Below are positions 14,816-48,788 of a stretch of 64,000 nucleotides of DNA, in pieces. Source of the stretch: Longimicrobium sp. (GTDB taxonomy: Bacteria > Gemmatimonadota > Gemmatimonadetes > Longimicrobiales > Longimicrobiaceae); NCBI RefSeq assembly GCF_035474595.1, contig NZ_DATIND010000152.1, forward strand, positions 3,518 through 67,517. Reading direction: 5' to 3'. Positions within the stretch are counted from its first letter, which is position 1; the number at the start of each line of letters is the position of its first letter. The translations under genes were made by a program, and so were the position numbers. The notes under the pieces were generated by a model. That model ran no database searches and was not told the origin of the DNA. It was given only the letters and a program-made list of their open reading frames with translations.

Positions 14816-15271
14816 CGGAGACTCAGCGCGGGGACGGAGGGCGGCTCGATCCCGCCGCATCGCGCCCTCTCCGGCCGGCCTAGGCCGTCCACCTCTCCCG
14901 TACCGGGAGAGGTGGCTGGGCACCATCCGCGCGATGGGATGGCACCTTGCCCGCCTGGCTGGCCCCCTCCCCCCGGGCCCCTCCGCCCGCTCCGCGGGGG
15001 AGGGGAGAACTCAACGCGGGGGGAGCTTCGGGAGCGCGGGGATGCCTGATTGGGCCCACGCATCACACGCAAGGCGATGCGTGCGCGGCGGTTGAGCGCC
15101 ACGATCGAAGTTACCCCCTCCCGTTATCGGGGCCCGTTATCGGGAGGGGGTACGCGGCCCCAGCCGCGGGGGGGGCCGCGCGGGGGGAGGGGTTCCACGG
15201 GAGCGGCCTCAGCGCGCCATCGCCAGGACGCACTGAGTTGATCCATCGATCCACCGATCACCGAAATCCGA
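14816..15271. repeat. Intergenic composite REP-like palindrome cassette 1
   Basis: Unit A 14858-14920, unit B 14949-15020, unit C 15105-15176. Confidence 0.85.
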
Positions 15272-18200
15272 ATGAGCTTCGAAGAGTCCGAAGAGCTGGA
15301 GAATGCGGGCACAGGCGGCACCGACATCGCCGTCATCGGTCTCTCCGCGCGCTTTCCCGGCGGGGAGACGGTGGAGGAGCTGTGGGGGCTGCTCGCCTCG
15401 GGGCGCGAGGCCATCCGCGCGCTCACCGAGGCCGAGCTGCGTGCGTCCGGTGTCCCGAAGTCGGCGCTCGACGACCCGTCGTACGTGAAGCGGATGGGGG
15501 TGCTGCGCGACGTGGAGATGTTCGACGCCGCGTTCTTCGGCTATTCGCCGCGCGAGGCCGAGGTGCTGGAGCCGGCGCACCGCATCTTCCTGGAGTGCGC
15601 CTGGGAGGCGCTCGAGAACGCCGGGTGCGACCCCGCGCGCTTCCCCGGCGCGGTGGGCGTGTTCGCCGGCTGCGGCGAGTCCAACTACACCGAGGCCAAC
15701 GTGTTGCCGCGCCGCGACGTGGTGGCGGCGCTCGGCGGGTTCCAGCTCTCCGTGGGCAGCAACAAGGACTTCTTCGCCACGCGCGTGGCCTACAAGCTGG
15801 ACCTGCGCGGCCCGGCGATGGCCGTGCAGACCGGCTGCTCGTCGTCGCTCGTGGCCATTCACGTGGCCGCGCAGGCGCTGCTGGCGCGCGAGTGCGACGT
15901 GGCGCTGGCGGGCGGCGCGTCCATCCTCGTGCCCCTGCATTCCGGCTACGCGTGGGAGCCCGGCGGCATCATGAGCGCCGACGGCACCTGCCGGCCGTTC
16001 GACGCCGATTCCACCGGCTCGGCGGCGGGGAGCGGCGCGGGCGCGGTGGTGCTGAAGCGCCTGGAAGACGCGCTGCGCGATGGAGATACGGTCCGCGCGG
16101 TGATCCGCGGCTCGGCGGTGAACAACGACGGGGGATTGAAGGTCGCCTTCACCGCGCCCTCCGTGGAAGGCCAGGCGGCGGTGATCGGCGAGGCGCTGGC
16201 GGTGGCCGGCGTGCACCCCGAGTCCATCCGCTTCGTGGAGGGGCACGGGAGCGGCACGGAGCTGGGCGACCCGGTCGAGATCGCCGCGCTGACCGAGGCG
16301 TTCCGGCTGCACACCGGGCGCACCGGCTTCTGCGCGGTCGGCAGCATCAAGAGCAGCGTCGGGCATACGGACGCGGCCGCGGGCGTCGCCGGCTTCATCA
16401 AGACGGTGCTGGCGCTGGAGCACGCCATCGTCCCGCCCACGGCCAACTTCCGCGCGCCGAACCCGCGCATCCCCTTCGCCTCGTCGCCCTTCTACGTCAG
16501 CGCCGCCGCCGAGCCGTGGGAGCGGGGAAGCGAGCCGCGCCGCGCGGGCGTCAGCTCGTTCGGCATCGGGGGGACGAACGCGCACGTGATCCTGGAGGAG
16601 GCGCCCGCGCCGGTGCCGTCCCGTTCGCGCCGCGCGTGGCATCTCCTCACGCTCTCCGCGAAGACGGCATCCGCGCTGGATGCGGCGACGGCGCGGCTGG
16701 CGGCGCATCTCCGCGATCACCCCGGTCTTCCGCTCGCCGACGCCGCCCACACGCTCCAGACGGGACGCCGGGAGATGGCGCACCGGCGCGTCCTGGCCAT
16801 CCGCGAGGGGGAGGATGCGGCGGCGCTGCTGGAGGGGCGCCAGCCGGAGCGCCTCGTCTCCGCGTCGGTGGACGACCAGCTGCGCTCCGTCGCCTTCCTC
16901 TTCCCCGGCGTGGGCGACCAGTACCCGCAGATGGCGCGCGGGCTGTACGAGTCCGAGCCCGTCTTCCGCGCGGAGGTGGACCGCTGCGCGGAGATCCTGC
17001 GCGCGCGCTTCGGCCTGGACCTCGTCGCCGCGCTCTATCCCGGCGCCGCGTCCGCGGAGGCCGACCCCGGCGCGGGCGTCGATCTCCGCGCGATGCTGGC
17101 GCGCGAGGAGGCCGACCCCGCCGCGGAGGCGCTGAACCGCACGGAGGTGGCGCAGCCCGCCGTCTTCGTCGTCGAGTACGCGCTCGCCAGGCTGTGGATG
17201 AGCTGGGGGATTGTGCCCGCCGCGCTCATCGGCCACTCGCTCGGCGAGTACGCGGCGGCGGCGATCGCCGGCATCTTCTCGCTGGAGGACGCGCTGGAGC
17301 TGGTGACGGCGCGCGGGCGGATGATCGGGCAGCTCCCCGCGGGCGCCATGCTCGCCGTCCCCCTCTCGGCCGACGCGGTGCGCCCGTTCCTGGTCGACGG
17401 CGCGGACGTCGCCGCTCTCAACGCGCCGGAGATGTGCACCGTCGCGGGGATGCCGGAGGCGGTGGAGACGGTGCGCCTCCGCCTGGCCGACGCGGGGCAC
17501 GTCGCCAGGCCGCTCCGCGCGACGCACGCCTTCCACTCGCCGCAGATGGACCCGCTGGTCGCGCCGGTGCGGGAGATGGCGGCGCGGATGCGGCTGCGCG
17601 CGCCCGCCATCCCCCTGGTCAGCGACGTCACGGGGACGTGGCTCACGCCGGAGGAGGCGGCCGATCCGGCGTACTGGGCGCGCCACATCCGCGAGCCGGT
17701 GCGGTTCGAGCGCGGCGTCGCGGCGCTCCTCGCCGATCCCGGGCGCGTGCTGCTGGAGCTCGGCCCGGGTCAGACGCTGTCGACCTTTGTGCGCCAGCGC
17801 GCGGACGCGGCCGGCGTCCCCGTCATCCCTACCGTCCGCTACCCGTACGACCGCACGCCGGACGCGGCGTTCGCGATGAATGCGCTCGGGCGGCTCTGGC
17901 TGGCGGGCGTGACGCCGGACTGGCGCGCCTTCCACGACGGCGAGCGCCTGCGCCGCATCCCCCTGCCCACCTACCCGTGGGAGCGCCGCCGCTACTGGAT
18001 CGACACGCCGGCGGAGGGCGATGCCGCTCCCCTCGCGCCGCGGGCGGGCAAGCGCGCGGACCCGGCGGAGTGGCTCTACACGCCGGTGTGGAAGCGCACT
18101 CCCGCCGTCCGCTCGTCTGACGCCGGCGACGGCGCGCGCTGGCTGGTGTTCACGGACGGCGGGGGGATGGGGGATGACGCTGCCGCCGCGCTGCGCGAGC

Positions 18201-19789
18201 GCGGGTGCGAGGTCGTGCTCGTCCGCCCCGGCGAGCGCTTCGAAGCCGCCACCGCGGGGGAGATGGCGATCCGCCCCGGCGCGCGCGAGGACTACGACGC
18301 GCTGGTCCGCGAGGCCGCCGCGGGCGATTCCCCCCTGCACGCGCTCCACCTCGGCGCGCTGGGGGAATCGGGGGCGCGGGGGATGGCGTTCGTGGGCGTC
18401 GCGCTGCTGGCGGCGGCGCTCGGAAGGCGCGGCGTCCCCGCCCGCCTGGTCGCGGTGACGGCGGGCGCGCACGACGTCACCGGCGCGGAGGTGCCGGACC
18501 CGTTCGCCGCGACGGTGGCGGGTGCCTGCGCCGTCGCGCCGGAGGAGCACCCCGCGCTCCGCTGCGCCGTGATCGACGTGGAGCGGGACGATCGCGCCGC
18601 CGCCGCGCTCGTCGCCGCGGAAGCGCTGGGGGCGAGGGAGGATGCCGCCGTCGCCATCCGCCGCGGGCGCCGCTGGGTGCGCGGCTTCGACCGCGTCTCG
18701 CCGTCTCCCATCTCCATCTCCCGTGGCGAAACGTGGTTCTTCGCGGGCGGGCTGGACGGGCGCAACGAGACGCTGGCGCGCCACCTGGCGCTCCGCCACG
18801 GCGCGCGGCTGGTGCTGGCCGACGAGCGCATCCCCGACCGCGCCGCGTGGGACGCCGTGGCCGCCGCGCGGCTGGCCGACGACCCCGTGCGCCGCCGCAT
18901 CGACATCGTCCGCGCGCTGGAATCCGCCGGCATCGAGGTGCTGACGCTGCGCTCCCGGCTCGACAACCCGCGCGTCGCGGGTGATGCGCTGGCCGCCGCG
19001 GAGCGCCGCTTCGGCCGCGTCCACGGCGTCGTCATCTCCCCCACGCTCGACGGGCTGGACGGCTTCGAGGCGCTGGCCGACGCCGCGCCGGGCGACTGGA
19101 CGCGCCGCCTCGGCATCGCCGCGCAGGAGCTGGAATCGCTGCGCGCCGCGCTCGCGTCGAGGGACGTGGGCGTGGTGATGGTGGAATCGTCCCTCACCCC
19201 CGTCCTGGGCGGCGTGGGGCGCGGGCGCATGGCCGCCGCGCAGGCGTTCGTCGACGCCTTCGCCGCCGCCACCCCCGGGTGGACGTCGCTCGCGTGGGAC
19301 CGCTGGCACGACGCGGCCGAGGTGGACGGCGGCTACGGGATGACGGAGGACGAGGCCGCGCGGGCGTTCGAGCACGCGCTCTCGCTGGCCGGCGAGCCGC
19401 GCCTCCTCGTCTCCACCGGCGACGTGGCCGCGCGCATCGCGGAGGCGCACCGGCCGGCGACCCAAACGCCCGCCGGCCACGCGCGCCCGGAGCTGGGGAC
19501 GGACTACGTGGCCCCGCGGACCGAGGCGGAGGAGGCGGTCGCGCGGATGTGGGAGGAGCTGCTGGGGATCGACCGCATCGGCGTGCACGACGACTTCTTC
19601 GGGATGGGCGGGCACTCGCTGCTGGCCACGCAGATCGTGTCGCGCGTGCGCACGCAGTTCGGCCTGGAGCTGCCGCTGAAGTCGGTGTTCGAGGCGCCCA
19701 CCGTCGCGCGCTACGCGGAGCTGATCGAGGCCGCGATCATGGCCGAGATCGAGGAGATGTCGGAGGAGGAGATTCTGAGTTTGGTGTGA
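15272..19789 (+). CDS. PKS1: hybrid-type KS - AT(malonyl) - degenerate KR - carrier protein
   Basis: KS triad TGCSSS, HGSGT, GHTDAAAG. Hybrid KS motif DFFATRVAYKLDLRGP. AT GHSLG plus HAFH. KR-like region lacks GxGxxG and the catalytic Tyr. Carrier GGHSL. Confidence 0.92.
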   Translation: MSFEESEELENAGTGGTDIAVIGLSARFPGGETVEELWGLLASGREAIRALTEAELRASGVPKSALDDPSYVKRMGVLRDVEMFDAAFFGYSPREAEVLEPAHRIFLECAWEALENAGCDPARFPGAVGVFAGCGESNYTEANVLPRRDVVAALGGFQLSVGSNKDFFATRVAYKLDLRGPAMAVQTGCSSSLVAIHVAAQALLARECDVALAGGASILVPLHSGYAWEPGGIMSADGTCRPFDADSTGSAAGSGAGAVVLKRLEDALRDGDTVRAVIRGSAVNNDGGLKVAFTAPSVEGQAAVIGEALAVAGVHPESIRFVEGHGSGTELGDPVEIAALTEAFRLHTGRTGFCAVGSIKSSVGHTDAAAGVAGFIKTVLALEHAIVPPTANFRAPNPRIPFASSPFYVSAAAEPWERGSEPRRAGVSSFGIGGTNAHVILEEAPAPVPSRSRRAWHLLTLSAKTASALDAATARLAAHLRDHPGLPLADAAHTLQTGRREMAHRRVLAIREGEDAAALLEGRQPERLVSASVDDQLRSVAFLFPGVGDQYPQMARGLYESEPVFRAEVDRCAEILRARFGLDLVAALYPGAASAEADPGAGVDLRAMLAREEADPAAEALNRTEVAQPAVFVVEYALARLWMSWGIVPAALIGHSLGEYAAAAIAGIFSLEDALELVTARGRMIGQLPAGAMLAVPLSADAVRPFLVDGADVAALNAPEMCTVAGMPEAVETVRLRLADAGHVARPLRATHAFHSPQMDPLVAPVREMAARMRLRAPAIPLVSDVTGTWLTPEEAADPAYWARHIREPVRFERGVAALLADPGRVLLELGPGQTLSTFVRQRADAAGVPVIPTVRYPYDRTPDAAFAMNALGRLWLAGVTPDWRAFHDGERLRRIPLPTYPWERRRYWIDTPAEGDAAPLAPRAGKRADPAEWLYTPVWKRTPAVRSSDAGDGARWLVFTDGGGMGDDAAAALRERGCEVVLVRPGERFEAATAGEMAIRPGAREDYDALVREAAAGDSPLHALHLGALGESGARGMAFVGVALLAAALGRRGVPARLVAVTAGAHDVTGAEVPDPFAATVAGACAVAPEEHPALRCAVIDVERDDRAAAALVAAEALGAREDAAVAIRRGRRWVRGFDRVSPSPISISRGETWFFAGGLDGRNETLARHLALRHGARLVLADERIPDRAAWDAVAAARLADDPVRRRIDIVRALESAGIEVLTLRSRLDNPRVAGDALAAAERRFGRVHGVVISPTLDGLDGFEALADAAPGDWTRRLGIAAQELESLRAALASRDVGVVMVESSLTPVLGGVGRGRMAAAQAFVDAFAAATPGWTSLAWDRWHDAAEVDGGYGMTEDEAARAFEHALSLAGEPRLLVSTGDVAARIAEAHRPATQTPAGHARPELGTDYVAPRTEAEEAVARMWEELLGIDRIGVHDDFFGMGGHSLLATQIVSRVRTQFGLELPLKSVFEAPTVARYAELIEAAIMAEIEEMSEEEILSLV

Positions 19790-20119
19790 GGCCTCGGGCA
19801 TCGCGCCCTCTCCGGCCGACTGAGGCCGTCCACCTCTCCCGTACCGGGAGAGGTAGCTGGACGGGCATCGCGGGGGAGGGGAGAACTGAACGCGGGGGAG
19901 CTTCCGGGACCGCAGGGATGCTGGATTGGGCCACGCATCACACCGGAAGCGCGGCATGCACCACCACCGGCGCGCCACGTTCGAAGTTACCCCTCCCGTT
20001 ATCGGGAGGGGTACGCGGCCCCAGCCGCGGGGGGAGGGCTCCGCGGGTACGCGCCGAAGCCCGGTTCGAACCGAGGGAATCCGTAGCTCCTGAGCCACGC
20101 ACGCTCGACTGAAAGACCG
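19790..20119. repeat. Intergenic composite REP-like cassette 2
   Basis: Unit A 19799-19860, partial B, unit C 19981-20038. Confidence 0.85.
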
Positions 20120-23100
20120 ATGAGCGACACGCAGACACCGCCGATCTCCCCCGACCGCCTCGCGTCCGCCAAGCGCCAGCTCCTCGCGCGGCGGCTGCGC
20201 GGCGAGGTGAAGGCGCCCGCGCCGCGCGACGCCATCCGCAAGGCGCCGGGCGGGCCCGCGTACCCCATGAGCTATCAGCAGGAGCAGCTCTGGTTCCTGG
20301 ACCAGCTCCAGCCGGGAAGCCCGTTCTACAACATCCCCTCGGCCAACCTGGTCTCCGCGCGCATCGACGTGCCCACGCTGGAGCGCGCGCTGGGCGAGAT
20401 CGTGCGCCGGCACGAGGCGCTGCGCACCGTCTTCCGCCTGGTGGACGGGCGGCCGATGCAGATCGTGCAGCCGCCTTTCGCCCTCCGCGTTCCCGTGGAG
20501 GAGCTGCGCGGCGCGGACGGCGGAGACGCGCCCGCGGAGAGGGTGCGGCGCAAGGTGGGCGAGTGGGGCGCGCTCCCGTTCGACCTGCAGAACGGGCCGC
20601 TCATCCGCGCGCGGCTGTACCGCGTGTCGGAAGACGACTGCATGCTGGCGATGAACATCCACCACATCGCCACCGACGGCTGGTCAATGCCGCTCATCAC
20701 CCGCGAGATGGAGGAGCTGTACGAGGCCTTCGCGCGCGGCGAGCCGTCGCCGCTGGCCGAGCTGGAGGTGCAGTACGCCGACTACTCGGTCTGGCAGCGC
20801 GAGCACCTGGCCGGCGCGGCGATGGAGCGGCAGCTGGGCCACTGGCGCCGCCACCTGGAAGGCGCGCCGCCCTCGCTCGACCTTCCGTACGACCGGCCGC
20901 GCCCCGCCGTGCAGCGCAACCGCGGCGCCATCCACCGCTTCGTCTATCCCGCCGCGCTCACCTCGCAGTTGCACGCGCTGGGGACGGCGGAGCACGCGTC
21001 GGTGAACATGGTGTTCATGGCGGGCTTCAACCTCCTGCTGCAGCGCTACAGCGGGCAGAGCGACCTGGTGGTGGGCACGCTGCTGGGGAACCGCAACCGC
21101 GCGGAGCTGGAGTCGCTGGTCGGCTACTTCGTGAACTCCGGCGCCATCCGCACCCGGCTGGACGGCGACCCCACCTTCCGCGAGGTCGTGCGCCAGGTGC
21201 GCACCTCGGTGCTGGAGGCCGACGCCGCGCAGGAGGTGCCGTTCGACCGCGTGGTGGACGCCGTGGGCGCGCCGCGCGACCCCGCGCGCAACCCGCTGTT
21301 CCAGGTCATGTACTTCCACCACACCTTCGTGGGGATGCACCACCTGGACGACGAGGAGGGGCTGGCGTCGTCGCTGAACCTGCGCTCGCTGTACCAGGAG
21401 ACCGACGTGGTGCTGGTGGACACCGGCGCCGCCAAGTTCGACATGACCTGGGCCACGCTGGAGCAGGACGGCGCGCTCACGTCGATGGTGGAGTATTCGA
21501 CGGATCTGTTCGACGAGTCGACCATCGCCCGCATGGTGGCGCATCTCCGCGCGCTCCTGGCCGACGCCTGCGCCCGCCCGGACGTCCCCCTCTCCCGGCT
21601 GGAGATGGTGACAGCGGAGGAGCGGGAGATGCTGCTCGCCGCGGGGACCAACGAGGGCGCGTTCCCCCGCGGCGTCTCGCTCCCCGCGCTACTGCGGGCG
21701 CGCGCGGAGGCGATGCCGGACGCCGCCGCGGTGGAGTTCGAGGACGCATCGTGGACGTATGCGCAGCTCGCCGCGCGCGCCGACGCCGTCGCCGCGCGGC
21801 TGCTGCGCCTGGGCGTGGCGCCGGGGGACGCGGTCGGCATCGAGGCGGCCAGCACCGCGCGGGTCGTCGCCTCCATCGCGGGGGTGCTGCGGCTGGGCGC
21901 GGCGGTGGTCCCGCTCGACCCCGAATATCCGCGCGAGCGGCTGGCGTTCATGGCCGGCGACACGGGCATCCGCGCCGTCCTCGCCGAAGGAGACCGGCTG
22001 GCGTGGCTCGGCGAGCGCCCCGGCACCACCGTCGTCCGGCTGGACCGCGAGTGGGCGGAGATCGAGGCGGAGCCCGTCCCCCACCATCTCCCCGACGCCG
22101 ATCCCGAGGCCGCCGCCTACCTCATCTACACCTCCGGATCGACCGGGACGCCGAAGGGGGTGCGCGTTCCCCACCGCGCGGTCGTGCGGACCACGCATCG
22201 CCCCGATTACGTGGAGATCGGGCCCGGCGCGCGGATGGCGCAGCAGAGCAGCCTGTCGTTCGACGCGTCGGTGTTCGAGGTGTGGGGCGCGCTGCTGAAC
22301 GGCGCCACGCTGGTGAACGTGCCGCGCGACATCCTCCTCGACGCGGGTGCGTACGGCCGCGCGCTGGCGGAGAAGCGCATCTCCGTGGCCTTCCTCACCA
22401 CCGGGCTCTTCCACCAGGTGGCGGACACGAACCCGGCCGCCTTCGCGTCGCTCGGCCACGTCCTCTTCGGCGGCGAAGCCGTGTCGGCCGCGCACGTGCG
22501 GCGGGTGAGCGAGGCGCATCCCCATCTCCGCCTGACCAACCTGTACGGCCCCACCGAGGTGGCGGTGGTCACCACCAGCCACCGCGTGGCCCCCGCCGAC
22601 GTGGAGCGCGCGTCGATCCCCATCGGCCGGCCGATCGGCGGGACGCGCGTGTACGTGATGACGGCGGGCGGGCAGATGGCGGGTGTGGGCGTGCCCGGCG
22701 AGCTGTACGCGGCGGGCGAGGGCGTGGCGCTGGGCTACCACCGCCGCCCGGAGCTGGATGCGGAGCGTTTCGTTCCGGATCCGTTCGTGGCGGGCGCCAT
22801 CGCGTACCGTACGGGCGACCGCGTGAGATGGTGCGAAAGTGCGAAAGTGCGAGAGTGCGAAAGTAACTCACCGCGCGCGGAGTTTTCTTCTCCGACACCC
22901 GGTCGCCCGACGCTCGCGCGGCCGTATGCAGGCCGCGCCGACCCCGTCCCTCCCCCAGGCAGTTTCGGGGGAGGGACAGGCGAGGAACGAGCCAGGGAGA
23001 GGGCCCACGAGGCCGAGGATCCGCGCGGTGCCGAATCCCGCGACGAACCCACTCTCGCACTCTCGCACTCTCGCACTTTCGCACTTCAGTTCCTGGGTCG

Positions 23101-32181: not shown

Positions 32182-32552
32182 GAGCATTGGTGCGGGGAGA
32201 GGGTGCGGAGCGCGCCCGCGGCGCCGCGCCCTCTCCGGCCGGCTTAGGCCGTCCACCTCTCCCGTACCGGGAGAGGTAGCTGGGTGGGATTGGTGCTGGG
32301 GGGCTGCATCCTGCCCGCCTAACCGCGGAGAAGCCTCCGGAGGCGCGGGGATGCTTGAGTAGGCCACGCATCAAGCGGTCACCCGACGAATGCGCCACCA
32401 CCTGAGCGCCGCGACCGAAGTTACCCCCTCCCGTTATCGAGAGAGGGGACGCGGCCCCAGCCGCGGGGGGAGGGCCCAAGGGGGCGCGGCCGAAGCGCCA
32501 TCAGTGGGTCGCACGACAGCAGGATTGAGTAGCTCATCACAGGATTGAGTAG
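32182..32552. repeat. Intergenic composite REP-like cassette 3
   Basis: Unit A 32225-32284, unit C 32416-32476. Confidence 0.85.
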
Positions 32553-35500
32553 ATGACCGCACACGACTCGATGCACGAGCCAGATAAATCCCTCGCCGCG
32601 TCCGCCGCGTCCGCCGCGCCCGATGCTTCCGATCCCGGCGGCGACTTCGACGTCGCCGTCATCGGCATGTCGGGGCGCTTTCCCGGCGCGGACGGCATCG
32701 ACGAGTTCTGGGCCAACATCCGCGACGGCCGCGAGTGCATCACCCACTCCACCCGCGACGAGCTGCGCGCCTCCGGCCATCCCCCCGAGATCGCCGACGA
32801 TCCCCACCTCGTCCCCGCGACCGGGCGCCTGCGCGACGTGCAGCACTTCGACGCCGCGTTCTTCGGCTTCAGCCCGCGCGAGGCAGAGGCGCTGGAGCCG
32901 TCGCACCGCATCTTCCTGGAGTGCGCGTGGGAGGCCATGGAAGACGCGGGGTACGACCCCTCGCGCGCGGGCGGCGCCGTCGCGGTGTATGCCGGCGCGG
33001 CGGGGCACGGCTACACCGAGCTGAACGTGCGCGGCAGCGCCGCGGCCACTGAGGGGATGACCGGGCTGCAGCTCAGCATGGCCGGCGGCGCCGACTTCCT
33101 GGCCACGCGCACGGCGTACAAGCTGGACCTGCGCGGCCCCGCGGTGACCGTGCAGACCGGGTGCTCCACCTCCCTCGTCGCCGTCCACCTCGCGGCGCAG
33201 AGCCTCCTTCGCGGCGAGTGCGACCTGGCGCTGGCCGGCGGCGCCTGCGTGCACATCCCCGACAGCGGCTACATCTGGAGCCCCGGCGGCCCCGCCTCGC
33301 CCGACGGGCACTGCCGCGCCTTCGACGCCGCGTCGGCGGGGATGGTGGGCGGCAACGGCGCGGGTGTGGTCGTGCTCAAGCGCCTGGCCGACGCGCTCCG
33401 CGACGGCGACGCCATCCGCGCGGTGGTCCGCGGGAGCGCGGTGAACAACGACGGGGCGGGGAAGGTGGCCTACACCGCGCCCAGCGTCGATGGCCAGGCC
33501 GCCGTCATCGCCGAGGCGCTGGCGCTCGCGGGCGTCGATCCCGCCACGGTCGGTCTCGTCGAGACGCACGGCAGCGGCACCGAGCTGGGCGATCCCATCG
33601 AGGTCGCCGCGCTCACCCGCGCCTTCCGCGCCACCGTCGAGCAGGGCGAAGGCTGGTGCGCGCTGGGCGCGGTGAAGACCGCCATCGGCCACCTGGACGC
33701 GGCCGCGGGGATCGCCGGGTTCATCAAGACCGTCCTCTCGCTCGAGCACGCGCGGATCCCGCCGGTGGTGAACTTCACCGCGCCCAACCCGCGCGTTCCC
33801 TTCGCCGGCTCGCCCTTCTTCGTCCCCGACGCGCCGCGGGAGTGGGAGACGGACGGCCATCCGCGCCGCGCCGGCGTCAGCTCGTTCGGCATCGGCGGGA
33901 CGAACGCGCACGTGGTGCTGGAAGAGGCGCCCGCGGCCGTGCCGTCCGGCGCGTCGCGCCCGTGGCAGCTGCTGGCGCTCTCCGCGCGCACCGCTGCGGC
34001 CGCGGATGCGGCGGTCGCGCGGCTGGCCGACCATTTCCAGTCCCATCCCCATCTCCCGCTGGCCGACGTTGCCTTCACGCTGCGCGAGGGGCGGCGCGCC
34101 TTGCCGCACCGCCGCATCGCCGTCGTGCGCGAGGGCGAGGACACGGCGGCGGTGCTGCGCGGCCCGGGGCGCGTCGCGTCCGGCGTCGCGGAGGCGGGCA
34201 GCCTCTCCGTCGCCTTCCTCTTCCCCGGCCTGGGCGACCACTATCCGCAGATGGCGCGCGGGCTGTACGAGGCGGAGCCCGTCTTCCGCGCGGAGGTCGA
34301 CCGCTGCGCGGAGATCCTCGTCCCCCTGCTCGGCCTCGACCTCCGCGACGTCCTCTTCCCCGGCGAGGCGCCGTCCGACGCCGCGCCCGAGGCGTCCGGC
34401 TTCGATCTGCGCCGCATCCTCCGCCCGGACGCGCCCGACCCCGCGGCGGAGCGGCTGAACCGCACCGAGCTCGCGCAGCCCGCCGTCTTCGTCGTCTCCT
34501 GGGCCTTGGCGAAGCTGTGGATGAGCTGGGGGATCGCTCCCGAGGCGGTGATCGGCCACTCGCTGGGCGAGTACGCAGCGGCGTGCGTCGCCGGCGTGCT
34601 GTCGCTGGAGGACGCGCTGGCGCTCGTCGCCGGGCGCGCGGCGCTCATCGGGCGCCTCCCCGGCGGGGCGATGCTCGCCGTCTCCGCCGCGCCGGACGCG
34701 CTCCATCCCCATCTCCCGCAAGACGTTGCGATCGCCACGGTGAACGCGCCGGAGCTGTGTGTGGCCGCGGGGCCCGAGGCGGGGATCGCCGCACTGGAAC
34801 GGCGGCTGGGGGAGATGGGGATCACGGCGCGGCGGCTGGCCACCACGCACGCCTTCCACTCGCCGATGATGGCGCCCGCGGCGGACGCGCTCGCCCGCCT
34901 CGCCGCGTCCGTGCGCCTGCGCCCGCCGCGCATCCCCATCATCTCCAACGTCACCGGCACCTGGCTCACCGACGCCGAGGCGACCGACCCGGCGTACTGG
35001 ACGCGCCACCTCCTGGGCACCGTCCGCTTCGCCGAGGGTGCGGGCGCGCTGCTGAGCGAGCCGGGGCACGTGCTGCTGGAGGTCGGCCCCGGCCAGACCC
35101 TCTCCACCTTCGTCCGCCAGCGCGCGGACGGCGGGGAAGCGGCGCCCGCCGCCGTCGTCCCCTCCCTCCGCTACGCGTACGACCGGCGCCCCGACCAGGC
35201 GGTGCTGCTCGACGCGCTCGGGCGGCTGTGGATGGCGGGCGTGGCGCCGGACTGGAGCGCGTTCCGCGGCGGCGAGCGCCGCCGCCGCGTCCACCTCCCC
35301 ACCTACCCGTGGGACCGGCAGCGCTACTGGATCGACTGGATGTGGGACAAAAAGGACAACAGGAGGGAGACGGGGGAAGGGAAGCGCGCCGACCCCGCCG
35401 AGTGGACGTACGTACCCACCTGGACGCGCACCCCCGCCGCATCTCCCGACGAAACTGTTTCGCGCATCCTCCTCGTCACCGACGGCGGGGCGATGGGAGA

Positions 35501-37109
35501 CGAGTTCGCCGCCGCGTTGTCGGGAGATGGGCGGCAGGTCGTCATCGTCCACCTGGGCGCCGCGTTCGCGCGGGATGGGGACGAATGGACGCTGCGGCCC
35601 GGCTCGCGGGATGATTTCCGTGCGCTTGCGGCCGCGGAGGGAGACAGGAAGCCGCAGTTGGTTGTAGATTTATCGAACGATCCCATCTCCTTCCTCCTGC
35701 TCGCCTCCGCGCTGGCCCACGCGGGGGTGGATACGCGCGTCGTCGCGGTGACCCGCGGCGCGCAGGAGGTGGCCGGCGACGAGGAGATCGATCCCCGCGC
35801 CGCCGCCGTCGCGGCCGCCTGCCGCGCCGCAGCGCTGGAGCACCCCGCGCTCCCCTGCCGCGCAGTTGACGTCACCGGCGACTCGTCCGCGGCCCGGCGG
35901 CTGGCTGACGAGGTGCTGGCGGTGGCGGACGAGCCCGTCGCCGCCCTGCGCGGGCGGCACCGGTGGGCGCGCGGCTTCCGCGCCGTGCGCGCGGAACGGC
36001 CCGCGGCGGCGGTGCGCGAAGGCGGCGTCTACGTCTTCGCGGGGGGGCTGGAGGGGCGCGGCGCCGCGCTCGCCGCCGCGCTGGCGGAGACGCCGGGCGT
36101 GCGCATCGCCGTCGTCGACGCGCGCCTCCCGGTTTCGGGGGAGATGCACCTCTTCCTGGAGATGCTCTCGCCCGGCAACCCCGCGCACGCCGCCGCCAGC
36201 GCGGTGAAGGCGCTCGCCGACGCCGGCGTGGAGGTCGTCACCGACCGCGCCGACCCGGTGCACGAGCTGGACGCCGCCTTCCGCCGCGTGGAGGAGCGCT
36301 GGGGGCGCGTCGACGGCGTATTCCACGCGCTGGGGATGGACGCGCTCGCCGCCCCCGCCGCCGTGGACGAGGTGCAGCCCGCCGGCTGGGCGCTGGAGAT
36401 GGACCGCGTCGACGCGCAGCTCGCCGCGCTGGAGACGGCGATCGCCGGGCGCGCGCTCGATTTCGTGCTGGTGGAGTCGTCGCTCGCGGGCGTCGTGGGC
36501 GCCGTCGGCCTCGCGCGCGTGGCGATGGCGAACGCGCGGGTGGATGCGTGGGCGCAGCGCGCGGCCCGCACCGGCGCGCCCGTCACCAGCATCGCGTGGG
36601 ACCGCGCCGCCGCGCCCGCCGCGTCGACCGATGCTGCCGACGCGCTCTGGATCGCCCCGCACGAAGTCGCCCCCGCGCTGCGGCGCGTGCTGGCGCTCGC
36701 GGGCGAGCCGAACGTGCTGGTCTCCACCGGCGCGCTGGAGCCGCGCATCCGCCGCGGCGCCCGCCCGGCCGAGGCCCCCGCGCGGCGCTACGCCCGCCCC
36801 GGCGACCTGTCCACCGCGTACCAGCCGCCGGAGAGCGACACCGAGGCGCGCATCGCCGAGGTGTGGCAGACGCTGCTGGGCGTGGACCGCGTCGGCGTCC
36901 ACGACGACTTCTTCGCGCTGGGCGGCCACTCGCTGCTCGCCACGCAGATCATCGCGCGGCTGAAGGACATGTTCGAGCTCGAGCTGCCGCTGAAGGTGAT
37001 CTTCGAGGCGCCCACCATCGCGAAGATGTCGCTGCTGGTCGAGGAAGCCATCCTCGCCGAGATCGAGGCGCTGAGCGAGGACGAAGTGAACGAGCTGGTG
37101 GCGGGGTGA
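32553..37109 (+). CDS. PKS2: hybrid-type KS - AT(malonyl) - degenerate KR - carrier protein, paralog of PKS1
   Basis: TGCSTS, HGSGT, GHLDAAAG; GHSLG, HAFH; degenerate KR (FAGGLEGRG, no catalytic Tyr); GGHSL. Confidence 0.92.
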   Translation: MTAHDSMHEPDKSLAASAASAAPDASDPGGDFDVAVIGMSGRFPGADGIDEFWANIRDGRECITHSTRDELRASGHPPEIADDPHLVPATGRLRDVQHFDAAFFGFSPREAEALEPSHRIFLECAWEAMEDAGYDPSRAGGAVAVYAGAAGHGYTELNVRGSAAATEGMTGLQLSMAGGADFLATRTAYKLDLRGPAVTVQTGCSTSLVAVHLAAQSLLRGECDLALAGGACVHIPDSGYIWSPGGPASPDGHCRAFDAASAGMVGGNGAGVVVLKRLADALRDGDAIRAVVRGSAVNNDGAGKVAYTAPSVDGQAAVIAEALALAGVDPATVGLVETHGSGTELGDPIEVAALTRAFRATVEQGEGWCALGAVKTAIGHLDAAAGIAGFIKTVLSLEHARIPPVVNFTAPNPRVPFAGSPFFVPDAPREWETDGHPRRAGVSSFGIGGTNAHVVLEEAPAAVPSGASRPWQLLALSARTAAAADAAVARLADHFQSHPHLPLADVAFTLREGRRALPHRRIAVVREGEDTAAVLRGPGRVASGVAEAGSLSVAFLFPGLGDHYPQMARGLYEAEPVFRAEVDRCAEILVPLLGLDLRDVLFPGEAPSDAAPEASGFDLRRILRPDAPDPAAERLNRTELAQPAVFVVSWALAKLWMSWGIAPEAVIGHSLGEYAAACVAGVLSLEDALALVAGRAALIGRLPGGAMLAVSAAPDALHPHLPQDVAIATVNAPELCVAAGPEAGIAALERRLGEMGITARRLATTHAFHSPMMAPAADALARLAASVRLRPPRIPIISNVTGTWLTDAEATDPAYWTRHLLGTVRFAEGAGALLSEPGHVLLEVGPGQTLSTFVRQRADGGEAAPAAVVPSLRYAYDRRPDQAVLLDALGRLWMAGVAPDWSAFRGGERRRRVHLPTYPWDRQRYWIDWMWDKKDNRRETGEGKRADPAEWTYVPTWTRTPAASPDETVSRILLVTDGGAMGDEFAAALSGDGRQVVIVHLGAAFARDGDEWTLRPGSRDDFRALAAAEGDRKPQLVVDLSNDPISFLLLASALAHAGVDTRVVAVTRGAQEVAGDEEIDPRAAAVAAACRAAALEHPALPCRAVDVTGDSSAARRLADEVLAVADEPVAALRGRHRWARGFRAVRAERPAAAVREGGVYVFAGGLEGRGAALAAALAETPGVRIAVVDARLPVSGEMHLFLEMLSPGNPAHAAASAVKALADAGVEVVTDRADPVHELDAAFRRVEERWGRVDGVFHALGMDALAAPAAVDEVQPAGWALEMDRVDAQLAALETAIAGRALDFVLVESSLAGVVGAVGLARVAMANARVDAWAQRAARTGAPVTSIAWDRAAAPAASTDAADALWIAPHEVAPALRRVLALAGEPNVLVSTGALEPRIRRGARPAEAPARRYARPGDLSTAYQPPESDTEARIAEVWQTLLGVDRVGVHDDFFALGGHSLLATQIIARLKDMFELELPLKVIFEAPTIAKMSLLVEEAILAEIEALSEDEVNELVAG

Positions 37110-37321
37110 GGAAGGAGGAGAGGCTTGGGCGGCAGGGCGGAGACATCCTGCCCGCCCGGCTGGCCCCTCCCCTCGGAGAACTCATCGAGGCGGCACCATC
37201 GCCTCGGAGCCGCAGAGATGGTGCGTTGCGAGTCCGCGAAGGCGGACTTCGGGCCGTTGTTGCCGCGAATTCATTCGCCCCTGGAAAGCCGGGGCGCAGA
37301 CCTGTTCAGCAAACCACCGAG

Positions 37322-38410
37322 ATGACGATGTCCCAAGCCGTTTCGCCGCTGCCGGAAATGCCGATGCCGGAAACGAAGAAGAAGCCCAAGGCCGTGAAGT
37401 GCGTGGTGTGGGACCTGGACCACACCGTGTGGGACGGCATCCTGCTCGAGGACGACCACGTGGAGCTGCGGCCGGGGGTGCTCGGCATCCTGCGCACGCT
37501 GGACGAGCGCGGCATCCTGCAGTCCATCGCCAGCCGCAACGACCGCGACCGCGCGATGGAGCGCCTGCGCGCGCTCGGCATCGACGACTACTTCCTGCAT
37601 CCGCAGATCGACTGGAGCGCCAAGGGGCAGAACGTCGAGCGCATCGCCAGGAAGCTGAACATCGGCCTCGACACCTTCCTGTTCATCGACGACCAGCCGT
37701 TCGAGCGCGAGGAGGTGGCGTTCGCCTGCCCGCAGGTGCGCACCATGGACGCGGCCGACCTGGCCACGCTCCTCGATCTCCCGGAGATGAACCCCGAGTT
37801 CATCACCGACGACAGCCGCCGGCGCCGCGAGATGTACCGCGCCGACATCGAGCGGCAGCAGGCCGAGGAGACCTTCGCCGGCCCCAGCGAGGAGTTCCTG
37901 CGCGGGCTGCGGATGCGCTTCACCCTGGCCCCGTGCGGCGAGGAAGACCTGCAGCGCGCCGAGGAGCTGACGGTGCGCACCAACCAGCTGAACACCACCG
38001 GCTACACCTACGGCTACGACGAGCTGGACGCCTTCCGCACCTCGCCGGACCACGTCCTCCTGGTCGCGGGGCTGGACGACCGCTACGGCACCTACGGCAA
38101 GATCGGCCTGGCGCTGGTGGAGAAGACGAGCGCCGGGTACTGGACGGTGAAGCTGCTGCTGATGAGCTGCCGGGTGATGAGCCGCGGCGTGGGCACCATC
38201 ATGATGAGCCACATCATGCGCCTGGCGAAGGACGCGGGCGCGAAGCTCCGCGCCGAGTTCGTCCCCAACGGCCGCAACCGGATGATGGAGGTCACCTACC
38301 GCTTCGGCGGCTTCCACGAGGTCGAGCGCCGCGGCGACATGATCCTCTTCGAGCACGACCTCGCGGCCATCGCCCCCTTCCCCGAGTACGTCGAGGTGGA
38401 GGTGGGATAA
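37322..38410 (+). CDS. fkbH: FkbH-like HAD-superfamily glyceryl transferase (HAD-IIIC plus GNAT-like C-terminal domain)
   Basis: KCVVWDLDHTVWDG, SIASRN, FIDDQPFERE, RTNQLN, LMSCRV are FkbH-family motifs. The start could be 37322, 37328 or 37358. Confidence 0.88.
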   Translation: MTMSQAVSPLPEMPMPETKKKPKAVKCVVWDLDHTVWDGILLEDDHVELRPGVLGILRTLDERGILQSIASRNDRDRAMERLRALGIDDYFLHPQIDWSAKGQNVERIARKLNIGLDTFLFIDDQPFEREEVAFACPQVRTMDAADLATLLDLPEMNPEFITDDSRRRREMYRADIERQQAEETFAGPSEEFLRGLRMRFTLAPCGEEDLQRAEELTVRTNQLNTTGYTYGYDELDAFRTSPDHVLLVAGLDDRYGTYGKIGLALVEKTSAGYWTVKLLLMSCRVMSRGVGTIMMSHIMRLAKDAGAKLRAEFVPNGRNRMMEVTYRFGGFHEVERRGDMILFEHDLAAIAPFPEYVEVEVG

Positions 38411-39017: not shown

Positions 39018-42000
39018 ATGCAGGACCTGCTCGACCGCAAGGCGGGCCTCACCGACGCCCGGCGCGCGCTGCTGGAGAAGCGGCTGCGCGGCGAGTCCCG
39101 CGGCGCCCGTCCGCGCGAGGCGATCACCCGCTGCGCCGGCGACGGGCCCGTCTTCCCGCTCTCGTTCGCGCAGGAGCGGATGTGGTTCCTGGCGCAGATG
39201 GACCCGGGCAGCCCCATGTACCAGGTCCCCGTCGCCATCTCCATCCGCGCCGACGTGGACGTGGACGTCCTGGAGCGCGCCGTGGCCGAGGTGGTGCGCC
39301 GACACGAGGCGCTGCGCACCGTCTACCGCATGGTGGGTGGCGAGCTGAAGTCCGTCGTCCTTCCGCCGTACCCGGCGCGCGTGGACGTCTTCGACCATCG
39401 CGGCCGCATCGCCGCGGGCGAGAGCGTGCGGGCGCTCATCGCGGAAGAGGGCGCGCGGCCGATCGACATCTCCACCGGCCCGCTGGTGCGCGTCACCCTG
39501 CTGCGCGTGAGCGACGAGCGCTGCGTGCTGGTGAAGACCACGCACCACATCACCACCGACGGCTGGTCCGAGCCCGTCATCTTCTCCGAGATCGACCACC
39601 TGTACGGCCGCTTCGCGCGCGGGCTGCCCAGCGATCTGCCCGAGCCCCCTCTCCGCTACGCCGACTACGCCGTCTGGCAGCGGCGCTGGCTTTCCGGCGA
39701 CACGCTGCGCGAGCAGGTGGACTACTGGCGGAAGCTCCTGGCCGGCGCCCCCGCGCTCGACCTCCCCACCGACCGTCCCCGCCCGCCCGCCGAAAGCCAC
39801 CGCGGCGCCATCCTCCGCTTCACCGTGCCGCCCGGGCTGACGCTGGCGCTGCGCGAGCTGTGCGCGCGCGAGCGGGTGACGCTGAACATGGTGCTCACCG
39901 CGGGCTTCTTCGCGCTGCTGCACAAGTATTCGGGGCAGAGCGACATCGTGCTCGGCGCGCTCTTCGGCAACCGCAGCCGCGCGGAGCTGGAGCGCATCGT
40001 GGGCTACTTCGTGAACACCGCCGCGCTGCGGATGGACGTGTCGGACGACCCCACCTTCGTGGAGATGGTGGCCCGCGCGCGGACCGCGGTGCTGGACGCC
40101 GACGCGCACCAGGACCTCCCGTTCGAGAAGCTGGTCGACGAGCTGGACCTGCCGCGCGACCTCAGCCGCCACCCGCTGTTCCAGGTGATGTACTTCCACC
40201 ACGTGTACGTGGAGATGCACCGCGCCTCGGACGACGGGATGCTGAGCGCGCTGGACCCGCGGCCGGTGCACGTGGAGCACAGCGTGGCGCTGGTCGACAC
40301 CGGCGTCTCCAAGTTCGACCTGCTGCTGAGCACCATCGAGTCCGGCGACGGGCTGATGGCCACGCTGGAGTTCGCCACCGACCTGTGGGACGTGGCGTCG
40401 ATGCAGGCGTTCTCCGCGCGGCTGCTGGCGCTGCTCGGCGACGCCGCCGCCCGCCCGCACGCCCGCCTCTCGCGCCTGTCGATGCTGGACGACGCCGAGC
40501 GCGAGTCCATCCTCCGCGCCTCCCGCGGCATCGAGCGGGAGATCCCGTTCATCCCCCTCCCCCGCCGCTTCGAGACACAGGCGGCGGCGACGCCGGGCGC
40601 GCCCGCGCTAACGTACGACGGCGCGACGCTCACCTACGCCGAGCTGAACGCGCGCGCCAACCGCCTGGCGCGCCGCCTCCGCGCGCTCGGCGCCGGGCCG
40701 GAGGTGCGTGTGGGTGTCTGCCTGGAGCGCACGCCGGAGCTCGTCGTCTCCCTCCTCGCCGTCCTGAAGTCGGGCGCGGCGTACGTCCCGCTCGACCCGG
40801 CGCATCCCTCCGCCCGCCTGCGCGCGCTGCTGGCCGACGCGCGCGCCCCGCTCCTCATCACCACGTGGGGGAGATGGGAGGCGATCGGCGGCGACCGTGT
40901 CTCGCCTGTCCTCATCGACGCGCACGCGGAGGAGATCGGGCGGGAGGAAGATGGCGATCTGGAGATGGAGATCGATCCGCGCACGCTCGCCTACGTCCTC
41001 TTCACCTCCGGCTCCACGGGAACGCCGAAGGGGGTGGAGGTCCAGCACGGCGGCGTCTCCAACCTCCTCGGCTGGATGCGGGAGATGGTGACGGACGACG
41101 AGCGCGCCGCCGTTCTCGCCTCGACCTCCGCCTCCTTCGACGTCTCCGTCGCGGAGATCTTCGACACCCTCTGCAACGGTGGCCGCCTCGTTCTCGTCGC
41201 CAACGCGCTCGACCTCGTGGGCCTCCCCGGCGCGGACGCGGTGACGATGGGGGTGATGGTCCCCACCGCCGCCGCCGAGCTTCTCCGCGCCGGCGCCCTC
41301 CCGCCGCGGATGGCGACGCTGAACCTGGGCGGTGAGGCGCTCCCGGCCACGCTGGTGGATGCGCTGCACGCGGCCGGTTCGGTGCGCACCGTCCGCAACC
41401 TCTACGGCCCCACCGAGGCGACGGTCTACTCCACCGTCGCCGTCGCCGAGCCCGGCGCGGAGCGCGTGAGCATCGGCCGCCCCGCCGCCAACACGCGCGC
41501 CTGGGTGCTGGACGCGGCGATGGAGCCCGTGCCGCCCGGCATCCCCGGCGAGCTGTACGTGGCGGGGGCGCAGGTGGCGCGCGGCTACCTGCATCGCCCC
41601 GCGCTCACGGCGGAGCGATTCCTCCCCGACCCGTTCTCTCGCGAGGGCGGGGCGCGGATGTATCGGACGGGCGACCGCGTGAGATGGTGCGAAAGTGCGA
41701 GAGTGCGAGAGTGCGAAAGTAACTCATCGCGAGGTGAGACTTTCTCTCCCCCGACACCCAATCGCCCGACGCTCGCGCCGGCGGATGCAGGCCGCGCCGA
41801 CCCCGTCCCTCCCGCAGGCAGTTCTGGGGGAGGGACAGGCGAGGCACGAGCCAGGGAGAGGGCCCACGGAGGCGAGGAAACGCACTCTGCCAGTCCGCGC
41901 GAAGACCCCACTTTCGCACTCTCGCACTCTCGCACTTTCGCACCTTCTCTCGCACTCGAATACCTCGGGCGCCTGGACAGCCAGGTAAAAGTCCGCGGCC

Positions 42001-44227: not shown

Positions 44228-47671
<3,444 letters not shown>

Positions 47672-47762
47672 CGCGCTGGCATCGGTCTGGCTGGTTACGA
47701 TGCTGCGCCCGTCGTGGATCGGCGGACGCGAGTCCGATCGTCTCCCCGAGCGACGAGTTGTC

Positions 47763-48380: not shown

Positions 48381-48422
48381 TAGGTCCGGAGATGAGCCTG
48401 TGCTTTCGCGCCGCACCCGTCC

Positions 48423-48768: not shown

Positions 48769-48788
48769 CGATCTGGATCGATCCCGGT

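Follow-up and report, generated by a model that had tools for sequence, protein, structure and literature searches.

The locus and its two divergent condensation domains

The window analysed here, a stretch of 64,000 nucleotides from Longimicrobium sp., encodes two polyketide synthase (PKS) modules and, downstream of each, a C-A-T-E protein whose N-terminal condensation (C) domain differs from the ordinary C domains of the same locus. The relevant features are located as follows:

15272..19789, forward strand: PKS1, KS-AT-KR(inactive)-carrier protein, predicted to supply the donor (Pfam)
20261..21637, forward strand: condensation domain (FHH-type), N-terminus of the C-A-T-E protein of ORF 20120-25093 (Pfam PF00668, AF2)
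20660..20680, forward strand: catalytic motif HHIATDG, intact, with a clade-specific Thr at its fifth position and then DGWSMP instead of DGWSxG
21074..21112, forward strand: GTLLGNRNRAELE, covering the end of beta8 and the first part of the floor loop, with clade-specific L282 and G284 instead of the P and A of ordinary domains (GTPIANR)
21305..21322, forward strand: strand beta10, VMYFHH (DSSP strand q357-362 in both AF2 models, mapping to FscG C3, conservation)
21323..21442, forward strand: latch (bridge) loop, enlarged to 40 residues up to KFD (AF2 models, homologue alignment)
32553..37109, forward strand: PKS2, again KS-AT-KR(inactive)-carrier protein, preceding the second C domain of FHH-type (Pfam)
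37322..38410, forward strand: gene with an FkbH domain, located between PKS2 and the protein that carries the second FHH-type domain (NCBIfam TIGR01686, Pfam HAD-type matches)
40179..40322, forward strand: second copy of the beta10 and latch variant, FQVMYFHHVYVEMHRAS...SKFDL, in the C domain of ORF 38955-43877 (C-A-T-E), after PKS2

Exact translation of positions 21299-21445 (forward strand) gives FQVMYFHHTFVGMHHLDDEEGLASSLNLRSLYQETDVVLVDTGAAKFDM, residues 394-442 of ORF 20120-25093, which reads FQVMYFHHTFVGMHH...KFDM and lies within an intact C domain. The domain belongs to the NRPS condensation superfamily (Pfam PF00668, residues 48-506 of the ORF, 561 bits) and, besides HHxxxDG, its other core motifs are likewise intact. 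Its AF2 model (pLDDT 91) displays the ordinary C fold, with Txo2 (6p1j), FscG C3 (7kvw), DhbF (5u89) and TycC6 (2jgp) as best PDB matches and TM values of 0.8-0.85 against solved C domains, and in this model the segment corresponds to beta10 followed by an enlarged latch. In an alignment of all 11 C/E domains of the window, the seven ordinary C domains show FQVAFALQN, FQAMVTLQN, FQVMLALRN, FQVMLTVQN and similar strands, then a short loop and KFDL, whereas in both post-PKS C domains LQN is missing and about 13 residues are added. A previous sequence-only reading of this DNA had described the segment as unusual, His-rich, longer and devoid of LQN next to an intact HHxxxDG, and the exact translation, the 11-domain alignment and a 787-domain background bear this out; nevertheless, FHH itself is a substitution of xLQ on beta10, outside the insertion, and the added residues are confined to the loop downstream.

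F360 (21314-21316) and H362 (21320-21322) stand in place of the x and Q of canonical xLQN. In the two AF2 models (pLDDT 91) the first half of the latch (q363-379, with H368/H369) is of low confidence and the second half (q380-402, comprising L380, R383 and LVDTG with D395) of high confidence. Further clade-specific changes are F257N, Y329D and L361H, together with LLG instead of PIA at the end of beta8. Based on an alignment to 7KVW checked on seven residue identities, M358, F360, H362, D395 and T404 align with FscG M2917, S2919, Q2921, P2941 and E2950, which are found beside the acceptor substrate at the active site (PMC8097023). The FscG residues at these positions are described in the vicinity of the acceptor side chain rather than of the donor, which speaks against the donor-side reading given below. 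[quoted passage not shown] No other element of C domains varies as much in structure as the latch, the loop joining beta10 and beta11 (PMC11186497). In the latch of SrfA-C, L360 lines the edge of the acyl-donor pocket (PMC11142918), and in a Cy-domain structure the opening of the donor tunnel lies between strands beta8 and beta10 (PMC9547227). By homology to the fuscachelin C3 structure and from these published descriptions, we infer that F360 and H362 face the substrate tunnel, where they may contact the donor, while the side chain of H361 is probably directed away from it.

Extent and conservation of the FHH-type clade

At least 60 C domains carry the feature and form a clade, here called FHH-type. 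Wherever a source is named it is Longimicrobium, Longimicrobiaceae or Gemmatimonadetes, and across 185,579 species genomes no other lineage showed the feature. FHH-type is a distinct C-domain subtype restricted to Longimicrobiaceae (Gemmatimonadota), and the window domain nests among the bacterial LCL-like domains of its own phylum. The background for comparison was drawn from an all-representatives HMMER search with the clade profile, the top ranks of which are dominated by giant multi-C NRPSs (summed score). Since in the 787 HHxxxD[GA] C/E domains of 150 such NRPSs the latch spacing has a sharp maximum at 27 residues, longer loops are rare, have low-complexity sequence and retain LQN, and [YF]F[HL]H is found in none (0/787), the feature is not a product of chance; clade latches span 39-41 residues, about 13 more than the canonical 27. 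The sequence-only reading had proposed a specialised C subtype, and in agreement with this the feature is clade-restricted and foreign to ordinary LCL domains, in which the motif was looked for as a common element regardless of context and was not seen.

Among 51 clade members (45-76% overall identity), F360 is present in all 51, H362 in 50, V365 in 48 and H361 in 47, the latter position varying between H, L and V among sister sequences. Likewise, L282 and G284 are found in 37/37 members, against P in 79% and A in 93% of the background. Only F360 and H362 are universal or nearly so. The second HH (MHH) is gone in much of the wider clade (for instance FHHASVNAAGG and FHHATVPSYD), and a four-His metal site was rejected upon the loss of H368 and H369 in several sub-clades. 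One member, P0323, displays Q at 362 (YFHQ) and is still found in a PKS-FkbH-C context. A sister group consists of orphan C-A-T proteins, with no PKS nearby, that share the same F-x-H-x-F-V-x-x-H core. When the 95-residue latch segment alone was used as query, 2 weak matches were obtained and known relatives were missed, the index being too sparse for short queries; literature searches on the YFHH motif, E-domain Asn975/Tyr976 and VibH N335 returned nothing usable.

Upstream PKS modules and candidate roles of the variant

The AT of PKS1 bears HAFH at 17525-17536, which we take to be malonyl-type. Its KR region, SSLTPVLGGVGRGRMAAAQ (19187-19264), has a Met at the expected position of the catalytic Tyr and GGLDGRNE (18737-18778) instead of GxGxxG, and its carrier protein contains a GGHSL motif (19607-19633); in PKS2 the KR region SSLAGVVGAVGLARVAMANARVD (36477-36554) is also devoid of the Tyr. 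The FkbH assignment of the gene downstream of PKS2 is based on a TIGR01686 score of 278 bits (cut-off 146.65), and the PKS-FkbH-C order is seen again in other loci and in L. terrae CB-286315, a cultured type strain with the same gene arrangement (GCA_014198875, JACHOW010000014). In 21 of 25 readable contexts the FHH-type C domain comes after a KS-AT-KR-CP module, from which an FkbH gene separates it in some loci. In all 11 modules checked (both window PKSs and nine homologous loci) the KR has neither the catalytic Tyr nor the Gly-rich NADPH motif, and therefore it is reasonable to infer that the donor would arrive in the beta-keto state. All FHH-type C domains are N-terminal in their protein, the donor being received in trans from a PCP-like PKS carrier protein (GGHSL) with a conserved acidic tail, EEMSEEEILSLV. 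The codes of the downstream A domains vary (Val/Ile-like, Gly-like, basic-like, aromatic-like), and in many members of the clade the protein is just C-A-T, about 1120 aa in length and with no E domain. The possibility that the feature tracks the acceptor amino acid or a downstream E domain was rejected in view of these widely varying codes and the many E-less members, as was a subtype-specific N-terminal LSxAKRxLLExRLRG leader, which is also carried by ORF B, with an ordinary C domain.

We give an even chance to the hypothesis that the FHH-type is an ordinary amide-forming C domain with a lineage-specific adaptation of its donor side for beta-keto chains. The domain heads C-A-T(-E) proteins encoded nearly always right after a KS-AT-KR0-carrier-protein module, predicted to be unable to reduce its own beta-keto group, and its most likely chemistry would be the ordinary one, in which an amide bond between the upstream thioester and the downstream aminoacyl-PCP is formed via the intact HHxxxDG. 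The changed beta10, beta8 and latch residues would reshape the donor side of the substrate tunnel plus the lid, and a tunnel of this shape would accommodate a peptidyl-gamma-amino-beta-ketoacyl chain, in which a C3 carbonyl is expected in place of the alpha N-H of a peptidyl donor, and no alpha side chain. A role in substrate handling is favored because the invariant residues are those at the inward-facing i and i+2 positions (F360, H362), and because the co-varying L282 and G284 flank the same tunnel mouth as beta10. The donor side in particular is favored because the donor context is constant (PKS in 21/25, inactive KR in 11/11) while the acceptor varies.

Several observations count against this donor-side hypothesis. 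By gene order four clade members, L008, L027, P0329 (L124) and P0370 (L003), follow NRPS proteins, P0329, P0370 and L008 being located after an E-domain protein. The F-x-H core of the orphan sisters, with no PKS, must either predate the PKS link or be independent of it. Neither FHH nor a consistently longer latch was found at three Tyr-less-KR PKS-to-C junctions of other taxa, and consequently the variant is not generally used for beta-keto donors. Duplication affects the PKS together with the C-A-T gene as one block, so that the association of the PKS with the feature is confounded by descent, and the orientation of the beta10 residues is derived by homology only. The beta-keto polyketide donors put forward in the sequence-only reading thus fit the upstream PKSs and their defective KRs, but not the NRPS-following members, the orphan sisters and the FHH-less junctions; in the same way, the search for the motif in other clusters gave at least 60 C domains that mostly come after a PKS, yet the link is not exclusive.

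A rather unlikely but credible alternative is a lineage-specific structural variant with no donor-specific role, which arose once, was retained for the sake of fold or packing (a D329-H361 pair, for instance, in place of canonical Y329-L361) and acquired its PKS link by block inheritance. The NRPS-following members and the core common to orphan sisters are consistent with it, as are the known variability of the latch (PMC11186497), the low model confidence of the first half of the loop and the paired Y329D and L361H changes, which along with F257N resemble compensating packing changes. Nevertheless, F360 and H362 remain invariant at tunnel-facing positions in sequences with no more than 45-60% identity, the Gln-to-His change affects a position at which 64% of ordinary relatives have Gln, and the changes cluster at the tunnel mouth (end of beta8, beta10) instead of being scattered.

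It is improbable that the domain is bifunctional, with H362, perhaps together with H368 or D395, acting as a second acid/base or metal ligand in a further step on the beta-keto intermediate, such as enolisation or epimerisation at C4, next to the ketone, or an oxazole-type cyclodehydration of the acylamino-ketone. The acylamino-ketone from a KR0 module is chemically prone to such reactions, and a His conserved in 50/51 members replaces an inert Gln at a tunnel position. A parallel exists in Cy and E domains, which use residues on the same C-lobe strands, the Cy Thr flanking the donor opening (PMC9547227), and FNYIG or VNYLG occupies the corresponding place in the E domains of the window. On the other hand, HHxxxDG is canonical, P0323 has Q at 362 in the same PKS-FkbH-C context and the orphan sisters, without a PKS, have the His. 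The lack of conservation of the second HH in the wider clade makes a multi-His metal site unlikely and thereby weakens the metal binding or extra activity suggested in the earlier reading, which is further disfavored by the low confidence of the loop and the probably outward H361. That tunnel-facing His362 catalyzes a second step after or instead of amide formation, enabled by the unreduced beta-keto group, is in our view very doubtful.

Recognition of the partner protein, in which the longer latch would touch the PKS, either at its PCP-like carrier or at its acidic C-terminal tail, as the chain is handed over in trans, accords with the N-terminal position of all FHH-type C domains and with the conserved tail but is highly improbable, as the latch covers the active site between the two lobes, away from both described carrier-protein docking faces, the invariant residues are on a buried strand and not in the exposed loop, and the ordinary N-terminal C domain of ORF B, in the same cluster, has this LSxxRRxLLExRLR leader too but an unaltered latch.

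The way in which C domains recognise their donors is poorly understood, and this limits NRPS and PKS-NRPS engineering. The clade represents a sharply defined natural experiment, in which Gln-to-His and x-to-Phe changes are combined with a longer lid in at least 60 domains at KR0 PKS junctions. If the changes encode donor recognition, they would supply a portable signature to predict or engineer the passage of beta-keto intermediates from PKS to NRPS. Should they add chemistry, the FHH-type would be a new functional C subtype and a fourth chemistry of beta10/latch remodelling beside Cy, E and dual E/C domains, and if neither applies they are a phylum-specific structural quirk, useful only to mark this family of uncharacterised Gemmatimonadota hybrid clusters. 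The presence of the arrangement in cultured L. terrae makes the question testable.

Comparison with known C-domain subtypes

Cy and E domains belong to the same superfamily and gained their chemistry via C-lobe strand residues facing the HHxxxDG site; the Cy dyad Thr/Asp lies on C-terminal-lobe strands facing this site, with the Thr beside the donor opening (PMC9547227). Unlike them, the FHH-type domain keeps a canonical HHxxxDG and an A-T acceptor module. Cy domains have DxxxxD in place of HHxxxDG, whereas the window domain has HHIATDG and matches the EpoB Cy domain only weakly (E = 2.6e-12). E domains follow their own PCP and have no acceptor module; the window domain precedes A-T, and the true E domains of the window align separately, with HHLVMDAVS and FNYIG or HHLVVDVVS and VNYLG, the second motif of each occupying the place of YFHH.

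At the gate position, FscG R2577, Arg is found in 73% of LCL and Gly in 80% of DCL domains (PMC8097023). The clade (n=37) has R in 25, Q in 10 and G in 0, the window copy has Q (YQQEQLWFL) and its closest relatives have R in 88/89, so the clade is LCL-like at the gate, with no Gly as in DCL, but the window copy itself does not have the Arg. DCL domains directly follow an E domain and have an acidic residue at the position of GrsB1 E386. The window copies follow PKS carrier proteins, and D395 is acidic but commonly so in LCL-like relatives.

In fungal-type Hybrid C domains of PKS-NRPSs a beta-keto polyketide thioester is condensed with an aminoacyl-PCP (PMC10212144). These domains (PsoA, 9X2C) are the nearest functional analogue, as they too adjoin a PKS carrier protein, but sequence affinity is lacking, PsoA being only distantly related (E = 3e-25, query 9-363 only, against 1e-83 for Txo2).

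The fold, the core motifs and HHxxxDG are common to the FHH-type and LCL domains (Txo2/Txo1 6P1J/6OYF, FscG C3 7KVW, TycC6 2JGP), and the best sequence matches are to LCL structures (E = 1e-83 to 1e-65, 31-35% identity). The canonical LCL strand FQVMFxLQN, followed by a latch of about 27 residues, is replaced in the window domain by FQVMYFHHT and 40 residues. LCL domains thus have x-L-Q-N on beta10, a latch of 27 and PIA on beta8, whereas the FHH-type has F-H-H-T, 39-41 and LLG, plus DGWSMP, N257 and D329, and, unlike in the LCL structures, its usual donor carrier is part of a PKS module.

The hybrid cluster and its two unusual C domains

The window carries a high-GC hybrid NRPS/PKS cluster with every gene on the + strand. 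In ORF C, the C-A-T-E NRPS protein after PKS1, the Pfam Condensation domain covers aa 48-506 (561 bits), and the translation of the segment at 21299-21445 (+), identical to that of the sequence-only reading, corresponds to aa 394-442. Alignment of all 11 C/E domains bears out what had been noticed there: in the ordinary C domains a short loop and KFDL come after FQVAFALQN, FQAMVTLQN, FQVMLALRN or FQVMLTVQN, whereas this domain has no LQN and is about 13 residues longer. The C domain that follows PKS2 (40179-40322, FQVMYFHHVYVEMHRAS...SKFDL) differs in the same two ways, and HHxxxDG is intact in both domains.

Features of the window
5'-cut, +, gene 1, C-A-MT-T
+, gene 2, three-module NRPS
15272-19789, +, PKS1, KS-AT-KR-CP
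18737-18778 and 19187-19264, KR-like domain of PKS1 (Met or Val at the Tyr position in the two PKSs)
20120-25093, +, ORF C, C-A-T-E (Pfam)
Between ORF C and PKS2, +, two-module NRPS
32553-37109, +, PKS2
36477-36554, KR-like domain of PKS2, without catalytic Tyr and Gly-rich NADPH motif
37322-38410, +, FkbH-domain gene between PKS2 and ORF E (TIGR01686, 278 bits)
38955-43877, +, ORF E, C-A-T-E
After ORF E, +, ORF F, C-A-T
50827-53763, 978-aa protein with APH phosphotransferase domain
55215-56747, PIN-domain protein
61130-62797, PrsW-family protease
2441-2712, 7332-7372, 10707-10970, 22816-23087, 27783-28045, 31245-31492, 41672-41958 and 46764-47030, A-domain elements
8542-8588, half-copy of the A-domain element
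14842-14916, 19797-19857 and 32210-32280, 61-75-nt repeat; 52529-52603, inverted copy

No release domain (TE or reductase) was seen among the ORFs scanned after ORF F (47700-64000), one of which encodes an OMP beta-barrel-like protein. The assembly line may go on elsewhere, or it may finish with no canonical domain for release.

In eight of the nine A domains of the window, core motifs A7 (YRTGDRVRW) and A8 (LQFLGRxDxQVK) are separated, always at one position, by an in-frame element of ~200-270 nt flanked by ~49-nt inverted repeats of GTGCGA[AG]A octamers (24 exact octamer triplets versus 0 expected). The exception is ORF B's third A domain (near 14100). A single arm-like copy is found within a C domain, the second of ORF B, immediately ahead of HHxxxDG. 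In most other loci the orthologous A domains have no insertion, and of 128 fetched loci just two (L016, L124) contain the octamer array. The element resembles a site-specific palindromic (MITE/REP-like) sequence that a surface hairpin of the A domain tolerates, and an Rfam search returned nothing above threshold. A REP- or terminator-like nature is possible for the 61-75-nt repeat (89-97% match), copies of which follow ORF B, PKS1 and ORF D just past their stop codons, with an inverted one within or beside the region of the 978-aa APH-domain ORF.

Distribution and structural position of the FHH strand and latch

Among 787 HHxxxD[GA] domains of 150 giant NRPSs, taken as background, the PLFQVMF-to-KFDL spacing peaks sharply at 27 residues, with most domains at 26-32, the rare long loops are low-complexity insertions that retain LQN, and [YF]F[HL]H is absent (0/787). 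A back-translated pattern, F-Q-x-[LMVIF]-Y-F-H-H-x-[FY]-V, scanned over 185,579 species with one genome each, gave 42 matches: 29 NRPS C domains, all from Longimicrobium, Longimicrobiaceae or 'Gemmatimonadetes' MAGs of 72-76% GC, and 13 fortuitous hits to tiny ORFs in genomes of low GC. These 29 loci were picked by the motif itself, and conservation figures are to be taken from the profile-derived set, in which the latch columns were masked in the HMMs, making the sample independent of the motif. This search assigned 38 further domains to the clade by >=90 bits, with [YF]FHH in 36 and YFHQ in one; a borderline sister group reads AFVHNFVRH, or FFLHAFVVQH in protein P0010. In the clade alignment (51 sequences, 45-76% identical to the window copy; q1 = aa 40 of ORF C) F360 and an acidic residue at 395 are found in 51/51, H362 in 50, V365 in 48, H361 in 47 and H368 in 40, and the loop has 35-42 residues, mostly 39-41. 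Given the background, the species-wide scan and the conservation counts, the FHH/latch feature is, as judged from sequence, real, selected and clade-restricted, and the proposed distinction from ordinary LCL domains held, the motif not being common among them.

Both AlphaFold2 models (mixed MSA and clade-only MSA) show an ordinary C fold with pLDDT 91, for which the best Foldseek matches are Txo2, FscG PCP2-C3, DhbF and TycC6. In the models, q357-362 (VMYFHH) is a beta-strand, q363-379 a low-confidence excursion with short helical turns, q380-402 is confident and the following strand begins at q403; so modelled, the segment is beta10 plus the latch/bridge, the latch being defined as the loop joining beta10 and beta11 (PMC11186497). 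HMMER alignment to 7KVW, with a chain-to-paper offset of +2480 that recovers seven residues named in PMC8097023 (M2917, S2919, Q2921, R2923, P2941, T2944, E2950), equates M358 with M2917, F360 with S2919, H362 with Q2921, F364 with R2923 (bridge start), D395 with P2941 and T404 with E2950; M2917, S2919, Q2921, P2941 and E2950 surround the acceptor substrate at the FscG active site (PMC8097023). Based on this mapping, 'FHH' is at the sequence level a substitution of canonical x-L-Q, with H362 in place of the LQN Gln. [quoted passage not shown] Latch residue L360 of SrfA-C borders the acyl-donor pocket (PMC11142918). Cy domains have the opening of their donor tunnel between beta8 and beta10, and a catalytic Thr/Asp dyad on C-terminal-lobe strands, the Thr of which flanks this opening (PMC9547227).

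As i, i+2 positions, the invariant F360 and H362 are expected to face the tunnel, and H361, which varies among sister sequences, would point away from it, perhaps pairing with the clade-specific D329 (Tyr in 85% of relatives). Further clade-specific residues are L282 and G284 at the beta8 end (GTLLGNR versus GTPIANR), T146, P152 and N257; in the orientation we infer, the beta8-end and beta10 residues lie around the mouth of the tunnel.

Upstream PKS modules and acceptor side

Upstream modules were sought by tblastn with the window's own domains, gene order serving as proxy for assembly order. The anticipated PKS is present: KS-AT-KR-CP directly precedes C in 11 loci, as well as at window ORF C, L124 and L128, and a second arrangement, PKS-FkbH-C, occurs at window ORF E, in cultured Longimicrobium terrae (L123) and in L127, and with the PKS cut off in L002, L031, L042 and L125. 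The link stands in 21 of 25 readable contexts and fails for four clade members that follow NRPS proteins: an E-terminated protein in L008, a C-A-T protein in L027, and a C*-A-T-E protein for P0329 (L124) and P0370 (L003). Nor is FHH a general feature of KR-less junctions, as it is found with none of three Tyr-less-KR modules from other taxa (L050, L062, L079); a reciprocal scan of metagenome contigs with a profile of the defective KR and its carrier protein gave only distant modules from other taxa, mostly with active KR and canonical latch.

Since in PKS1, PKS2 and nine homologous loci the catalytic Tyr position is M, V, I, L, A, S or H and a GGLDGRNE-like sequence replaces the Gly-rich NADPH motif, the KR-like domain appears conserved as inactive. 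The AT domain has HAFH, which with such a KR we take to predict a malonyl extension left as beta-keto thioester. The carrier proteins of PKS1 and PKS2 have a PCP-type GGHSL motif and an acidic tail (EEMSEEEILSLV). As the extension is predicted to stay beta-keto, the donor would be a peptidyl-gamma-amino-beta-ketoacyl chain on a PCP-like (GGHSL) carrier.

Acceptors differ, the Stachelhaus-type codes of the downstream A domains being Val/Ile-like, Gly-like, basic-like and aromatic-like when read against a PheA segment that yields DAWTIAAIC. The clade includes many C-A-T proteins of ~1120 aa without E domain, and the N-terminal leader LSxAKRxLLExRLRG is common to the clade and the ordinary C domain of ORF B. 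Sister stand-alone C-A-T proteins (~1125 aa, latch AFVHNFVRH; L126 8025-11414 and L130 6674-10051, from a JGI metagenome contig and a Gemmatimonadota MAG, another cluster member being named Longimicrobiaceae) have a conserved non-NRPS neighbourhood of DeoC, HAD hydrolase, DUF1540 and DSBA.

No FkbI/J/K partners of the FkbH gene, whose product would place a glyceryl unit on a carrier protein, were seen in 37110-38954 or among the downstream ORFs scanned. In L129 (1-6308, Longimicrobiaceae MAG) four genes separate the PKS from the FHH-like C domain of P0010, encoding an FkbK-like 3-hydroxyacyl-CoA dehydrogenase, an unannotated 82-aa ORF (possibly a carrier protein), an acyl-CoA dehydrogenase and an FkbH-like protein, the set expected for a hydroxymalonyl/methoxymalonyl-ACP pathway.

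Possible function and relation to known C domains

The best-supported hypothesis, with about an even chance of being right, is that this C domain forms amide bonds in the ordinary way, its donor-side tunnel and lid being adapted in a lineage-specific manner: the non-reducing PKS module would deliver a beta-keto chain, and the altered tunnel and lid would suit it. That the variant is purely structural, a phylogenetic hitch-hiker, seems unlikely to us, and would agree with the F-x-H core of the PKS-less orphan sister group (P0372, P0379; no PKS nearby) and with inheritance of PKS and C-A-T unit as a block. The extra activity suggested earlier is chemically attractive, Cy and E domains using the same structural region, but conservation does not extend to the second HH, and Gln replaces H362 in one member from the same context, which makes an added catalytic step distinctly improbable. 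A docking role for the latch loop fits poorly with carrier-protein binding sites and is the least credible.

No description of the motif or of the products of these clusters was found in the literature searched, and the FHH-type domain is experimentally approachable through L. terrae. By sequence the window domain is nested among the bacterial LCL-like C domains of its own phylum and, judged by defining motifs, is neither a Cy, an E nor a DCL domain; the fungal Hybrid C domains are the closest functional analogue, although their sequence relation to it is only distant.
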